This document shows, one piece after another, positions 6,001 through 12,000 of a stretch of 64,000 nucleotides of DNA (position 1 is its first letter; each line of letters opens with the position of its first letter). Location: assembly GCF_003991155.1 (NCBI RefSeq), contig NZ_CP031297.1. One strand, 5' to 3'. Position numbers: made by a program. Source of the stretch: Escherichia coli (GTDB lineage Bacteria; Pseudomonadota; Gammaproteobacteria; Enterobacterales; Enterobacteriaceae).

Positions 6001-9000
6001 TCAGGTGCTGTTGATTCGTTCTTCCAGCCTGTAGAGCAGTTTGTTGATCAACTCATTGACCAGCTCAAAGAGCAAGTCAAAGAAGTGATGATGGATGTCA
6101 TGAAATCAGCAGGCCAAGATGCAGCAACAGAGCAGGCGGCTGCCGCAGCATCTGAACAAGCTGCCGAAGCAATGATGGAGACTGCGACAACATGGCTTAG
6201 CACTGCCATGACGATATATACCGTCTATGTCGTTGCGATGGTGATGATCCAGATGATTTATAAGTGCGAGGAAGAAGAGTTCACTATGAACGCAAAAAGA
6301 GCGCTCAAGAATTGCACCTATGTAGGCTCTTATTGTAAATCTAAGGTGTTGGGCGCTTGTATTGAAAAAAGAGAAGCGTATTGCTGCTTCAATTCTCCGC
6401 TCTCTCGTATTATACAAGAACAGGTTCGCCCTCAATTGGGGCAGAACTTTGGAGACCCCAAAAATCCTCAGTGTGAAGGGATTCCACTAGATAAAATTGC
6501 CGAAATTGATTGGAGCAAAATTAATTTGGATGAGTGGCTTGGGATATTACAGCAGAACGGTAAATTCCCTGATCCGGCCTCAATAAATCTCGACTCGCTG
6601 ACTGGAGCAGGGAATGACTTCAATATTGACGGGACGCGGAAGAATGCTCAGGAAAGGGCGTTGGAGCGGTTGGAAGGGATTGATATTGACGCGAAGCGAA
6701 AAGAGGCGACAAACAGCATAGACCCTCAAACAGGCGCGCCAACTGGTGGTGGATAAAAAAAGGGGCCTTTCGGCCCCTTTCTCATGTAGATTGATTACGC
6801 TTCTGGGTAAACAAATAACTCTGCTTTTCCCTGATCAAGAAGGTAAGGGAAAGCAACTTTTTCGCCATTATCCAGCTCAACCGATTTTGGAGCAAGGTAG
6901 AGGTAGGCCCAAGCTGGTAGCTGTTTGCTAATAGCTGCGTAGATCGCTTGCTGAGGAGCATGGCTTGCTGCCCCATTACCGACATTCACAAAGTTGTATG
7001 CGGTCTCATGGCCTGATGTGAAGGCATACGCTGTACCTTGAACGCCAGAGACAAAATTAGGAGCTGACCCTAGGCGAGGCTCCACGATTTTCACCTTAAC
7101 GGAACACATGTCAGCTACCTTACTTTGTCCGTTCACCCACGTCGGGCAACCCCATTCATTCTTGTAGAACTGATAGGTTAGGCGACCGTCTTTGTCATAC
7201 AGAAGCGTGAAATTGGCACCCAAATCAGTCAGCGCTGACTCAATGGAAACTTTCACATGTGAAAGAAATTTGGCCTGAGCGTCTGCCGGTGAAACTGCTT
7301 CGTTAGCAGGCATCCAAGCGATCAAGCTATTGCGAGCGCCATGCTGTTTGGGGCCGATAGCCCAGTTCGCAAGGTTGACCAAGCCACCTTGCCAGTCGGT
7401 CATTCCGAGCTGAGGGGACATGTAGCCAGACAGCACGTAGGCTGCCCCAAACGTTTTGGTGTCGGTCAGACGCTCCAGCTTGTCACGCGGAACAGAAGCG
7501 TCTTGGATGCCTGTTACCAGGCCACCGGCCTCCGCGATGTTGTAAGCGCGACTGTGATTGGTTTTGTACGCTGTGGGTTCGTAACTGCTGGTGGATGCAC
7601 AGCCAGATAGAGCTGCTACAGCCAGAGCCACGGTGGTGATTAAAGCCTTTTTCATGTTGTTCTCCGTTCTTACCTGAGTTGAATCTGATTTACTTCGATA
7701 ATATCACAGCATCAAAAAATGCAACCATAAAAGACAAAAAAAAGCCCCTCGGGCGAGGGGCAAAGGTTTGGGCTGGGTTATGCTGCTTTTGTTTTCTCGG
7801 CTTCGTCTGCGATTTCCTTGTCGCCGGTTGCAGATTCCGGAGCGGCTTCGGCCACTTCACCTTCTTTGCCTTTGCTGTGGGCGGAAATGCGAGCCCGTTT
7901 CTCGATGCCGATGATTCGACCGGCCAGCTTGATGAGGCGTTGCTGCCATTGGTAAGTGGCGTCGGTGCGCTGCTTGCTGGTCAGTACGGTGTTCAGCCAG
8001 AGAGTGTCAACGATCCCCATCAGGGTATCCAGTTTGCGGATCAGGTGTGCAAACTGAGCAACCTGAGGAGAGTTGATCTCGATGGTGTATTCATTCGGGT
8101 TGGTGTAGCCGGGCATCATGTCGATGCCGTTGTCTTCCATCAGCTTGTTGAGCTGGGCGGTAGCTTTGTCCAGGTCTTCGGAGACCTTGGAAATGTGTTC
8201 CAGGATGACGGTTTCAACCTGGTCGATTTCGTCCTGCTCACCGATGATGCGAAGGATCACGTCGATGGAGAACAGGGAGTTGGAAACTCGCTCAAAGCTG
8301 CGTTCCATGACGCGCTGAGCTTGGAGGCTGTTTACTTTCAGAACTTGCTTGAAAACAGGGCGAGAGTAGTGGTTGCTGCGGTCGTTGTTTGTGTCCAGTG
8401 CTACTTGTGCTTCTGCCATTAGAGATACTCCTAAATTTGAGGTACAGATAAACGCACTGGAAAGGATAAATGCGGTCAATCTGTAACCTGACCTCTCGAA
8501 GTGCCCAAAATGGACAGTTACAGCGTTTTCTGTTTAGCAAAGGTGAGCTATATTTGAATCATCTTAGTCGCTCTGCGGCTATAGGTGAGATAGCTGGTCT
8601 CCGAAAACAAACAGCATCTAGTCTTATGCCGTATGGCATTACTTAACCCCAAGCCGGGGGCTTCTCCCGGTTTTCGGGTGTTGCCCCTGTTTTTTTTACA
8701 TAGGAGCAACACCATGCACATCATCACTTTCATTGTAGTTCTGCTTGCATCTCTGGGCGCACTGTACGTAGGCGCGAAGGCATTTGCTTTTTCCTTCATC
8801 GTTCTCGCTAAAGTGTTCCAGCGTATCGGTTTGTTCCTTTGGAACAAATTCGCAGTTCCTGCAATGCGGTCTGTACAGGCCGTCATCAAAGAACGTGCTG
8901 CCAAGGCTGAACAAGCCAAAGCAGTCGTTGAACCTGAGGTAACTCAAGTTCAAGAAGTCGCTAAACAAGAACCTGACTGGGATTATCTCGAAATCCCGAC

Positions 9001-12000
9001 TTACCTTCGTAAGGGCAAGGAACTTGTTTGGTAATAACTGTCGCTGAGTAATCTTCGACACTTTCAAACCCATCGGGGCAACCATACCCCGACGGGGATG
9101 TTGCCCCTTTTTGCTTAGGAGCAACATCATGGAAATCGCTATCATCGCTTTGTGTATCCCTGCTGGTTGGGCAATCTCTCGTCCTTTCGTGAGAATCGCT
9201 GAATCGTTCGGTTACTGCTGATAGTCAACGCAAAGGGAGGGGGCAACCCCTCTCTTTCTGGTCAAGCCTCTGTGGCTTGTCCTCAAAGTCTTCTGGTGTC
9301 AGTTGGCTTTGACGACAAGCTACAGGGGGAATGTCGAATGCAACAGAATCTTCATGTTTACGACGATCACGCAGGCATCATCTATCTGGCTGATGGACGC
9401 GAGGTGAAATTTGATCCGAAACTGTATTCCAGCTCCTACCAGGCGCACAGTGAAGCAGTGAAGTGGGCCAAAGAAACCGGGGTCATTGGTCAAAACGACG
9501 ATGTGGTGATGTTCGTCCATTGAGGGAGTAGCCTCCAGGAGAGGCTACTCTCCTCGCTCCTTAAAAGTCTTCTTACTCATGGTGAATACCATCAGTAAGC
9601 AGATTTTGTTCTCTTCGGAGAGCGAAAAGTGCGATAGCTGGTCGCCAAAAACAAACAGCAAATTAACGTTAATTTACTAGCCCAACCGGGCGCATCCGCC
9701 CGGTTCGGGACGTGGTGCGCCTGTCACAATAGGAGCGCACCTATGTCTCAATACTCTCAATTCTCAGTAAGCAAGGTTTTCGGTATGCCCAGCATTCCGG
9801 AGAAGGTAACGGCCATCGGCTACGCTGACGGTTCAAACCCTTTCATCCCTGCCACTGATACCAACTACGTTTTCCGCAAAGAGTTTCTGCGAGAGGTCTT
9901 GGCCTATCTCAAAGAGCCTGGCGGTGACGCATTGTTCGTAACCGGCCCTACCGGGTCTGGCAAAACCTCAGGTATCACCGAGATCGCTGGTCGTCTCAAC
10001 TGGCCTGTTCAGCAAATCACTGCCCACGGGCGGATGGAGCTGACAGATCTGATTGGACATCACGCTCTGGTCGCGGAAAAGCCTGGTCAACCACCTGTCA
10101 TGAAGTTCATGTATGGACCTCTGGCAGTCGCTATGCGTGAAGGTCATCTGCTCCTCATCAACGAGGTGGATTTGGCCGACCCTGCCGAGCTGGCTGGTCT
10201 CAACGATGTCCTTGAAGGGCGTCCCCTTGTGATCGCTCAGAATGGCGGGGAAATCATCAAGCCGCACCCGATGTTTCGTGTGGTCGTTACTGGTAACTCT
10301 ACGGGGTCCGGTGATGCTTCTGGTTTGTACCAGGGGGTGATGATGCAGAACCTCGCAGCTATGGATCGCTATCGTTTCACCAAAGTAGGGTATGCGGATG
10401 AGGAAGCTGAACTCAGCATTCTTGGCCGTGCTACTCCGAAACTTCCGGAAAATGTGCGGAAGGGAATGGTTCGGATTGCTAATCAGGTCCGCAAACTGTT
10501 TCTTGGCGAAAACGGTGAAGATGGTCAGATCAGCGTCACCATGTCCACTCGGACGTTGGTGCGTTGGGCGAAACTGTCTCTAGCGTTCCGTGGTGCCCCA
10601 AATGCTCTTGAATACGCCTTGGATCAAGCTCTGCTTATCCGTGCGGCCAAAGAGGAGCGTGAAGCCATCCTGCGTGTTGCGAAGGATGTGTTCGGGGACC
10701 AATGGCGCTAAGAGGTGACGCATGAAGAAAAATGACTGTTTGTGCCGTCGTTACACTGCTAAAGAGTGGGGCAATGACGAAACCACAATAGAAGTCTTCA
10801 TTGGCTACAAGTTGCTCCGGGAGCCCAGCTCCTCGGAGCCAGGCCAATTCACGATGGTCGAGCTACGCCGAACCGTCACTGATGGGAAAGCTGAAAATTG
10901 GTCTGAGACAAAGCTCGAAGGACCTTTTGAAGCTAACGGCCCAGACACGATCCCAATGTCCTACAAGGACAAAGAAAGCCAGTATGTGTCACAGTTTCTC
11001 AGCCAGGGGTACACCTTTCTGGATGAGGTGCTGGTAAACGCAGAGACACAGACGGTGCTGGAAGGGGGGAATGTTTCAGCCGGACAAACAGCCAGCTTGG
11101 GATCTCTCAACTGGCTGTTATCTCCGCCCTCTGAGTTACCTCCAGGTGACATAAACCTCTTCAAAGGTTTTGTTGCTGGGGTTTTTGCCAAAGGAGCCGG
11201 TTTAATCGGCTTTGAGGTTGCTCGGAGCGAAGGCTCAAATGACTTGCTACCCAGTGTGCTGATGCGTACTGACAGCGGTTATGAGCTTGGGGTTAGCACT
11301 GGACTAGGCGAAAACACTATCCATCCAGCTACGCTGGAAGGCGCTGGTGAACTCCGCCCGGAACATGGTCACAAACCCCTGCTGATGTTGGTTTACCTGC
11401 AACAGCGTTTCGCGGATGACTTTTCAAACGTAGAGAAGCCGCTGGTGGCATTCTGTGATGAACAGGGTGATACCTTCGACTACGAGCGTTTTGATTCACT
11501 AAAACCCCTCATTGAACGGTTTGGTTTCAGCTACGACGAAGTAAGAGCAGATGCAGAAAGGCTTGGCCTTGTATCTGAGCTGATTCGCCTGGCAGAGATC
11601 GACGCCGAACAAGAGGATCACTTTTTTTAACCCTTACGGGGGCTTGCTCCCCGAAAGGGGCGTTGGCCCTCTCCAAATAACTTGGAGGTCATGATGTCTA
11701 AAGGCGTCAACAAAGTAATTCTGGTCGGTAATCTCGGTTCTGACCCGGAAATTCGCTACATGCCAAGCGGCACTGCCGTTGCCAACTTCAACGTTGCAAC
11801 AACGGATACGTGGCGCGATAAGCAGTCTGGCGAGCAAAGAGAGCATACTGAGTGGCACCGTATTGTGCTTAAAGGTCGTTTGGCGGAAGTCGCTGGTGAG
11901 TACCTGAAAAAGGGCTCCCAAGTCTATCTCGAAGGGAGCAACCGCACCCGGAAGTGGACTGACAGCCAACAAATCGAGCGCTACACCACCGAAGTACACT

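Follow-up and report, generated by a model that had tools for sequence, protein, structure and literature searches.

Two small genes behind predicted Shine-Dalgarno-sequestering hairpins on an IncC plasmid, and a proposed mimic of the FtsZ tail

What do two short hydrophobic open reading frames (ORFs) do when they stand one after the other on the backbone of a conjugative plasmid, with almost the same ribosome-binding context in front of each? The DNA analysed here is a 64,000-nucleotide stretch of contig NZ_CP031297.1 (assembly GCF_003991155.1, Escherichia coli), called the window below. It is IncC (IncA/C2) plasmid backbone; its segment 8400-9750 is 100% identical to many IncC conjugative plasmids, and this segment is matched at 99% identity or above by 757 PLSDB records. 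Plasmids of the IncC and IncA groups rank among the main vehicles of resistance genes, those for carbapenemases included, and for a large part of their conserved backbone no function is known. A sequence-only reading had described here a 106-aa membrane protein (ORF1) and a 30-aa hydrophobic ORF (ORF2), separated by a GC hairpin and a T-run, and both ORFs and the hairpin (stem 9075-9107, TTTTT at 9108-9112) are present. On the coordinates of pVCR94, where vcrx087 lies at 65235-65555 and vcrx088 at 65859-66044 (Carraro 2014, Dataset S1), ORF1 is vcrx087 and a 61-aa ORF at 9338-9523 is vcrx088, while ORF2 has no vcrx number. The gene vcrx087 has been described as a gene of unknown function (Durand 2021).

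We believe that the locus is best explained by an AcaCD-activated transcript, hairpins that occlude the Shine-Dalgarno (SD) sequences of its small genes, a conserved peptide encoded by ORF2, and an ORF1 product that would act as a decoy through a tail like that of FtsZ; taken as a whole, we hold this explanation to be evenly poised between right and wrong. The gene vcrx087 and its AcaCD control are already known and ordinary. New here, judged from sequence, are the small gene ORF2, the design of the leaders and, above all, the proposed FtsZ-tail mimicry. The features that carry the argument are as follows.

8503-8515, + strand: core of the AcaCD box of promoter P087 (GCCCAAAATGGAC), mapped from Carraro 2014
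8549-8561, + strand: TATATT -10 element and transcription start (~8559-8561), from 5'-RACE mapped onto the sequence
8677-8713, + strand: SD-sequestering hairpin of ORF1, with 5' arm GGUGUUGCCCCUGU, U-rich loop and 3' arm AUAGGAGCAACACC; -17.4 kcal/mol
8714-9034, + strand: ORF1 = vcrx087, 106 aa, with N-terminal transmembrane segment, variable linker and conserved C-terminal motif
8981-9013, + strand: DYLEIPTYLRK, ORF1 codons 90-100, resembling the FtsZ C-terminal peptide
9097-9128, + strand: SD-sequestering hairpin of ORF2 (GAUGUUGCCCCU / AGGAGCAACAUC); -14.7 kcal/mol
9129-9221, + strand: ORF2, conserved 30-aa hydrophobic peptide (MEIAIIALCIPAGWAISRPFVRIAESFGYC)
9338-9523, + strand: ORF3 = vcrx088, 61 aa, co-transcribed and AcaCD-dependent (annotation, published RNA-seq)

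The transcript, ORF2 and the hairpins over the start sites

For vcrx087 in pVCR94, the published AcaCD motif spans 65019-65047 and 5'-RACE puts the start at 65081-65083 (Carraro 2014, Table S3); these positions were mapped to the window using vcrx087 = 65235 and acaB = 64942. The full 29-nt motif falls at about 8496-8524 and overlaps the divergent acaB box, and P087 and the acaB promoter form a divergent AcaCD pair. The core GCCCAAAATGGAC fits the published form of the motif, GCCCNDWWWGGGC (PMC8373056). With transcription starting at about 8560, the 5' untranslated region (UTR) of vcrx087 is about 153 nt long. In published RNA-seq (Carraro 2014), the values without and with AcaCD were 5 and 3445 for vcrx087, 9 and 11025 for vcrx088, and 3 and 3463 for vcrx089, respectively; in the wild type, vcrx088 had 2343 versus 1454 for vcrx087. 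Because the same study lists no AcaCD site upstream of vcrx088 or vcrx089, the simplest reading is read-through from P087 across the hairpins, and no promoter of its own was found for vcrx088. The transcript would thus start at about 8560, run through ORF1, ORF2 and vcrx088, and probably continue into the cobS-like, ssb, bet and exo genes. The RNA of vcrx088 is about three times that of vcrx087, though vcrx088 lies downstream of two terminator-like hairpins; this excess might come from greater stability of hairpin-flanked mRNA segments.

ORF2 runs from an ATG at 9129 to a TGA at 9219-9221, with a TAG directly after. Its N-terminal half is hydrophobic (hydropathy peak 1.75, Kyte-Doolittle, 19-residue window), and the peptide is marginally long enough to span a membrane. 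The peptide was found by tblastn in 797 plasmid records. RefSeq annotation omits it, a few GenBank records call it a hypothetical protein, and none of the matches listed (60 plasmid records) has an annotated feature at its position. Complete homologues are present in IncA (33 aa), in two Aeromonas plasmids, in plasmids of Photorhabdus, Shewanella and Edwardsiella ictaluri, and in metagenome contigs. The dN/dS (Nei-Gojobori) was 0.12-0.17 against the Aeromonas copies and 0.21 against IncA, the variable sites at codon positions 1, 2 and 3 numbered 7, 8 and 18, respectively, and the length difference in IncA is an in-frame 9-nt insertion. Three distant loci, whose ORF1 is 34-39% identical, have a 30-aa ORF in the same place behind the same upstream hairpin, with the pattern M-x-[IL]-x-[IL]-[ILV]...C..x-G-[WL]..S-[RK]-P...F-G. 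The gene is absent from an Edwardsiella piscicida plasmid, a pAQU1-type Vibrio plasmid and one metagenome contig.

Could ORF2 be untranslated, its conservation coming from constraints on the mRNA or DNA such as a structure or a binding site? The neighbouring non-coding hairpins are themselves highly conserved and RefSeq annotation skips the ORF, as such a reading would have it; the changes, however, gather at third positions, the dN/dS values are low, the sole indel is a multiple of three, both other frames are closed by stops, and distant relatives retain the start, the length and the double stop despite diverged nucleotides. We therefore consider an untranslated ORF2 highly improbable. The peptide sequence and the 30-aa length are, to judge by the aligned sequences, under purifying selection; ORF2 is most likely a genuine small membrane peptide, and we are confident that it is a real gene. 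It would be a new and widespread 30-codon gene left out by standard annotation. In Vibrio parahaemolyticus pVPH1 (pAQU1-type, without ORF2), two other hydrophobic ORFs, of 73 aa (2638-2859) and 43 aa (2921-3052), lie between the homologues of vcrx087 and vcrx088.

The start contexts of ORF1 and ORF2, TAGGAGCAACACCATG (8701-8716) and TAGGAGCAACATCATG (9116-9131), are identical at 15 of 16 positions. The earlier claim of an identical start context stood to this extent, and its notation of the spacer as N was loose, the spacer being 2 nt. The similarity reaches 30 nt at 83% (repeat search, D7), and a second shared block, GGGTGTTGCCCCTGTTT / GGATGTTGCCCCTTTTT (D16), is repeated 415-420 nt apart. 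The match is not a matter of chance, because the same ORF1/ORF2 arrangement recurs among relatives (IncA, Aeromonas, Photorhabdus, Shewanella, Edwardsiella and metagenomes), even where ORF1 identity is as low as 34-39%. The first codons of the two ORFs are also alike in nucleotides (8714-8760 and 9129-9175; ATCATCACTTTC and ATCATCGCTTTG) and the upstream half-leaders align, which suggests an ancient tandem duplication as the origin of the leader-plus-start module.

What the two start contexts have in common, TAGGAGCAAC, forms the 3' arm of a conserved hairpin; it pairs with a shared upstream sequence, GTTGCCCCT, which buries the SD. On folding, GGAGCAAC(A/C)(C/U)C pairs with the upstream G(G/A)UGUUGCCCCU, and the SD and the bases up to the AUG are buried. 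The pairing probability was 0.88 for the SD of ORF1 (AGGAG, 8702-8706) and 0.70 for that of ORF2 (9117-9121). Pair conservation was scored on hand-specified structures. In the ORF2 hairpin, 100% of cells were standard-paired over 9 distinct sequences, and two pairs had compensatory changes (A-U to G-C and G-C to A-U); in the ORF1 hairpin, 90% of cells were paired over 13 sequences, with three compensatory pairs. When the 3' partner was slid by 1-3 columns, pairing fell to 29-65% overall (30-61% for ORF1 and 29-65% for ORF2). Consensus folds of 12 and 9 relatives choose the same two hairpins, whose loops vary in length and sequence while the arms are fixed; the long T-run before ORF1 (8690-8697) is the loop of this plasmid's hairpin and is not conserved in relatives. 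The same anti-SD design, built from other stem sequences, also stands before vcrx089, vcrx094, vcrx098 and two more ORFs.

Two points weigh against the hairpins being special. Compared with 32 other ORF starts in the window, the SD pairing of ORF2 lies between the 75th (0.65) and 90th (0.72) percentiles and is not extreme, and that of ORF1 lies between the 95th (0.76) and 99th (0.94), so the separation is modest overall. The compensatory evidence rests on few pairs, because most hairpin positions are invariant. We nevertheless consider it likely that the SD-sequestering hairpins exist and have been conserved. In front of all three small genes there would then be a conserved stem-loop with the SD in its 3' arm, and the RNA structure would hold their translation down. 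The view that both ORFs are real genes, and that their shared start context is regulatory RNA and not coincidence, is supported. The leaders resemble other SD-sequestering leaders, such as RNA thermometers and type I toxin mRNAs, in that the SD to the start codon pairs upstream, with conserved arms and a free loop. They differ from RNA thermometers in their GC-rich stems of -15 to -17 kcal/mol, which in our judgement are too stable for a typical thermometer, and the anti-SD module recurs here before at least eight genes of one plasmid. A recurrent SD-occluding leader before many genes of the AcaCD regulon is new, and would point to an unexplored post-transcriptional layer of IncC regulation.

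The spacer hairpin and the nature of ORF2

The spacer between ORF1 and ORF2 and the region after ORF2 contain four further structures.

9069-9096, + strand: first-forming spacer hairpin (CCC.AUCGGGG...CCCCGA.GGG), competing with the terminator-like stem; -17.3 kcal/mol, prefix folding
9075-9112, + strand: terminator-like alternative, GGGGCAAC with GUUGCCCC around an inner stem, then U5; -21 to -22.4 kcal/mol
9232-9258, + strand: stem-loop after ORF2 (AAAGGGAGGGG-GCAA-CCCCUCUCUUU), terminator-like on both strands; -18.4 kcal/mol
9267-9330, + strand: long hairpin whose 3' arm lies over the vcrx088 SD; -42.8 kcal/mol

In the terminator-like stem, GGGGCAAC (9075-9082) pairs with GTTGCCCC (9100-9107) around an inner CCCC/GGGG stem; this hairpin has -22.4 kcal/mol, and 3 of 200 shuffles fold as well. 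The terminator scanner made no call here because of the nested loop. Prefix folding gave three stages. The hairpin at 9069-9096, which is also in the consensus structure, forms first; the stem of GGGGCAAC and GUUGCCCC replaces it exactly while the U-run is made and is the minimum-energy fold only for prefix ends 9108-9124; after GCAAC, the first hairpin and the anti-SD hairpin stand together at -33.4 kcal/mol, versus -27.2 with the terminator stem enforced. From this order of folding, the 9069-9096 hairpin can serve as an anti-terminator built into the spacer, and a transcript that has read through is left with a closed SD. In one relative (L020) there is no U-run, and in another (L021) it is interrupted. 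The pairing that is conserved is the anti-SD one, GTTGCCCC with GGAGCAAC and the T-run as its loop, and not the terminator. Read-through of the hairpin, raised by the sequence-only reading, is borne out by the published RNA-seq, in which there is more RNA downstream (vcrx088, 11025) than upstream (vcrx087, 3445); with no drop across 9075-9112, these data argue against an efficient terminator or attenuator. The spacer GUUGCCCC may thus pair transiently with GGGGCAAC and give a terminator-like hairpin without efficient termination in vivo. Past ORF2, the 9232-9258 stem is kept in Aeromonas despite a different sequence, and the segment 9222-9337 folds with z = -7.9. Strong conservation of the 9267-9330 hairpin extends to Aeromonas plasmids whose overall identity is about 70%.

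Two roles had been offered for ORF2 from the sequence, a leader peptide coupled to the terminator or a small toxin-like peptide, and neither is supported by these results. As a leader peptide, ORF2 would by its translation control the terminator; the alternating G4/C4 tracts of the spacer do allow hairpins that exclude one another, with a U-run after one of these, and the GC-rich stem with U5 is alike in a trp-type attenuator or an intrinsic terminator. In such an attenuator, however, a leader ORF lies upstream of the stems or overlaps them, whereas ORF2 starts 17 nt 3' of the T-run, downstream of the 9075-9107 hairpin and neither before nor over its stems. The stop of ORF1 is 40 nt upstream of that hairpin, and neither ORF overlaps the alternative stems. 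The next hairpin begins 11 nt past the ORF2 stop and the one over the vcrx088 SD 46 nt past it, the U-run is not conserved, and the peptide itself is conserved with synonymous changes. Since RNA is more abundant downstream than upstream, attenuation by a leader peptide is not supported, and we find it scarcely credible.

The toxin reading supposes a type I-like small membrane toxin silenced by the SD-sequestering hairpin. Burial of the SD in a stable hairpin is known from several type I toxin mRNAs, and ORF2, with fewer than 60 aa, a hydrophobic N-terminal half and its SD inside such a hairpin, resembles Hok, Ldr, TisB, Ibs and ShoB in these respects. Unlike them, it matches no toxin family: searches of Pfam, NCBIfam, PHROGs and PADLOC gave no toxin, defence or other family for ORF2, nor for the other two small proteins. 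A consensus scan of the - strand at 8400-9800, which is a weak test, found no promoter-like site for an antisense RNA, and no Rfam family matches the leaders, also a weak test for an antitoxin RNA. A constitutive toxin mRNA is not seen either, for the flanking vcrx087 and vcrx088 RNA is near zero without AcaCD and the ORF2 RNA is AcaCD-dependent. Some related plasmids are missing ORF2 and show no trace of an antitoxin. The toxin reading thus keeps a slim chance, and ORF2 is better read as a probable membrane peptide, conserved and encoded on the AcaCD-activated transcript.

The C-terminal tail of ORF1

ORF1 runs from an ATG at 8714 to a TAA at 9032-9034. The hydropathy peak of 2.42 at residues 3-21 (same scale and window as above) marks a clear transmembrane segment, and the tail is hydrophilic from about residue 45. 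With one or two membrane passes, the C-terminus is predicted to be cytoplasmic by the positive-inside rule and the positions of charges. This C-terminus, EPDWDYLEIPTYLRKGKELVW, resembles the end of E. coli FtsZ, EPDYLDIPAFLRKQAD (translated from MG1655). The FtsZ peptide DYLDIPAFLRK (~370-380) and DYLEIPTYLRK of ORF1 score 47 of a possible 58 by BLOSUM62, and in an ungapped scan with the FtsZ peptide of 85,064 six-frame windows from the 64 kb, ORF1 scored 47 and the runner-up 24. ORF1 has the core pattern [DE]-[IV]-P-x-[FY]-[LI]-[RK]-[KR], preceded by acidic or aromatic residues.

Among 1.84 billion representative proteins, a profile search turned up only 19 members of the ORF1 family (19-61% identity to ORF1). 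This family is kept in IncA and IncC and in related conjugative plasmids from Vibrio, Aeromonas, Shewanella and Enterobacterales. The only invariant residues among the 19 are P95, R99 and G101, all within the motif, whose variants include PAFLRR, PTFLRK, PAFIRK, D-V-P-A-Y-L-R-K and E-x-P-A/T-F-L/I-R-K/R. In close homologues the motif is the best-conserved segment, and across the 19 members the linker varies widely in length and sequence while the motif is kept. Five divergent members, aligned locally to E. coli FtsZ, each matched best at residues 369-380. The comparison of the ORF1 family with 91 gammaproteobacterial FtsZ tails by hhalign gave a probability of 96.1% and P = 3.5e-9, and the aligned region ends with DiPtyLRK = DIPAFLRK. 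The P value rose to 0.51 after the last 17 FtsZ columns were removed, to 0.27 after the last 20 family columns were removed, and to 0.43 when the FtsZ tail was reversed. None of 150 column shuffles was as good (maximum 14.5 versus 45.2 for the real match); the shuffles were made on gap-poor columns, as gap-rich columns at the profile ends gave spurious scores of about 130 at 0-16% identity. Lacking a GTPase domain and any Pfam FtsZ or tubulin hit, and with the transmembrane segment as its N-terminus, ORF1 is not a homologue of FtsZ. It is like the FtsZ tail in having the motif near the C-terminus after a probably disordered linker variable in length and sequence, and unlike FtsZ in that an anchor takes the place of the tubulin-like domain, with an extra W before the motif and G-K-x-L-V-W after it.

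Homologues of ORF1 in Aeromonas (L002 1653-2015 and L014 1053-1415) have a 13-aa internal duplication in which IGLFL(W/K)NKL is repeated. Their tail, DLDVPAYLRKG, is nearer to FtsZ DIPAFLRK than the IncC version at the P-A position.

The C-terminal peptide of FtsZ is a common docking site for FtsA, ZipA, MinC, SlmA and ZapD, and for this reason we propose vcrx087 as a membrane-tethered decoy. Its tail would bind the holders of the FtsZ peptide, namely FtsA, ZipA or possibly MinC, and would compete with FtsZ at the membrane, delaying cell division while the conjugation programme and the operon are on. The tight occlusion of the SD would be explained by a potentially toxic ORF1 product. In function, ORF1 would be an analogue of lambda Kil, whose gene lies in the PL operon, overlaps gam and cIII, stands beside bet and exo, and encodes a ZipA-dependent block of FtsZ assembly (PMC3961180). 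Like lambda Kil, and also Rac Kil and Qin DicB, ORF1 is a small mobile-element gene beside Red-type bet/exo genes and is induced with an early or transfer operon. Unlike ORF1, with which it shares no sequence similarity, Kil is soluble, has 47 aa and acts on FtsZ itself, whereas ORF1 would decoy its partners. ZipA resembles ORF1 in that it crosses the inner membrane once and has its N-terminal anchor joined by a long flexible linker to a C-terminal module of FtsZ-tail interaction; it differs in holding the receptor domain where ORF1 would hold the ligand, and is a mirror image and not a homologue. By analogy, Kil and DicB would be the closest functional counterparts of ORF1, with ZipA its architectural mirror image.

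Several results weigh against the decoy. The likeness to the FtsZ tail was noticed post hoc. A 17-column HMM of the FtsZ peptide, run with HMMER on six-frame segments, placed ORF1 11th with 1.1 bits and did not single it out; the ungapped BLOSUM scan and hhalign discriminated far better. In the ORF1 family, W89 and the C-terminal G-K-x-L-V-W are conserved and have no counterpart in FtsZ; six more conserved residues stand after the motif. FtsZ I374 is a key contact for ZipA, and in distant members of the family the equivalent position varies (I, V, Q, E, S, T). An AlphaFold2 model of ZipA(185-328)-(GGGGS)x6-ORF1 tail, built on a 37-sequence alignment, gave a peptide pLDDT of about 31, versus about 30 for a scrambled tail, and with no positive control it is uninformative and not a negative result. 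A reporter of the vcrx087 promoter was active constitutively as well as under AcaCD/SgaCD control (Durand 2021), and expression of vcrx087 is therefore not strictly tied to conjugation. A phmmer search of the ORF1 tail against PDB sequences gave nothing relevant, where the peptides or the match may be too short for the library or the HMMER filters.

Some of these points can be read in favour of another role, in which ORF1 and ORF2 serve the conjugation apparatus, for example as a mating-pair accessory of TraN/Sfx, and the likeness to FtsZ is convergent or coincidental, with some other partner bound. AcaCD activates the genes, which adjoin traN, sfx and acaB; W89 and the terminal LVW are conserved in the family and absent from FtsZ; the I374-equivalent position varies; and the AlphaFold run showed no docking to ZipA. 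Against this, the profile-profile match to the FtsZ tail is motif-specific and far above all controls, and an anchor, a variable linker and a short terminal motif parallel the linker and tail of FtsZ. In relatives, moreover, the gene travels with the cobS-like/ssb/recT/exo module and not with the tra genes, and the pAQU1 cluster is at a locus separate from the tra genes. We consider the conjugation-accessory role unlikely. That the ORF1 motif acts through the partners of FtsZ comes, in our estimate, a little short of an even chance. The full proposal, in which vcrx087 would be an AcaCD-induced decoy titrating FtsA and/or ZipA at the membrane, with a Kil-like pause in division, a dose throttled by the leader RNA and ORF2 as a co-expressed partner, is tentative and rather more likely to fail in some part than to hold.

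Literature searches found no report of a plasmid FtsZ-tail mimic and none of an IncC-linked division phenotype. If the decoy is real, it would be, to our knowledge and by these searches, the first mobile element to control host division by copying the docking peptide of FtsZ instead of attacking FtsZ. It would also link conjugation and recombination functions to the cell cycle, and would offer a natural minimal tool to probe competition at FtsA and ZipA.

Neighbouring genes and repeated leader sequences

In an annotated copy, the gene order is traN, a 286-aa lipoprotein gene (- strand), a 213-aa gene (- strand), the 106-aa and 61-aa hypothetical genes, a CbbQ/NorQ-type AAA ATPase, a 302-aa protein, ssb, bet and an exonuclease. 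The literature names sfx = vcrx085 and acaB = vcrx086, followed by vcrx087-090. Among relatives, the conserved order is traN-sfx-acaB-ORF1-(ORF2)-vcrx088-cobS-like-ssb/recT, and the synteny of ORF1 with cobS-like, ssb, recT and exo genes is kept even in distant family members. The 213-aa protein (7778-8419, - strand) is AcaB by literature and synteny; its match to the Pfam model PF08900 is weak (E 0.033, 14.4 bits, cut-off 27).

The 5' UTR of vcrx087 contains three further features.

8566-8580, + strand: 5'-terminal mRNA stem-loop (AGUCGC-UCU-GCGGCU), from the consensus fold of 12 relatives
8587-8616, + strand: leader element copy 1 (GAGATAGCTGGTCTCCGAAAACAAACAGCA), inside the 5' UTR; near-unchanged in 12 relatives
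8651-8673, + strand: GC-rich leader hairpin, in the single-strand fold and the consensus fold

In the stem-loop, the pair at columns 19/31 varies between U-G, U-A and C-G. The leader element is 30 nt long, and the window holds six copies, all on the + strand (8587-8616, 9631-9660, 14466-14495, 18298-18327, 26494-26523 and 32751-32780), with the consensus G(C/A)G(A/G)TAGCTGG(T/C)(C/T)(G/T)CC(A/G)AAAACAAACAGCA. Each copy stands about 70-100 nt 5' of a gene start and is followed by a GC hairpin and an SD-sequestering hairpin. The element is almost unchanged in the 12 relatives, very distant ones included, and it is transcribed, copy 1 lying at +28 to +57 of the vcrx087 mRNA. Its small stem has a compensatory change between copies (GAGA..UCUC and GCGA..UCGC), and its core resembles the RfaH ops site GGCGGTAGCGTG, with copy 5 reading GCGGTAGC. 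The element might be an antitermination site or a leader-RNA regulator site. As an AcaCD box, the repeat GAGATAGCTGGTCTCCGAAAACAAACAGCA is ruled out: the published box, with the motif GCCCNDWWWGGGC, occupies about 8496-8524, and the repeat is part of the 5' UTR. A literature search for the element's sequence gave nothing relevant, and the RefSeq annotation of one IncC plasmid names no NusG/RfaH-like product in its first 50 kb (of 140 kb).

The leaders of vcrx089 and vcrx094 share a 121-nt perfect direct repeat (9601-9721 and 14436-14556), and a closely similar leader lies at 32751. Reads from this repeat may be ambiguous in the published ChIP-exo and RACE maps. Elsewhere in the window, identical ORFs recur with an offset of 4,884 bp at about 41.0-42.2 kb and 45.9-47.1 kb, for example a 339-aa ORF (- strand) at 42074/46958 and a 144-aa ORF (+ strand) at 41097/45981. 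This points to a duplicated segment, which may be a mobile element in two copies.

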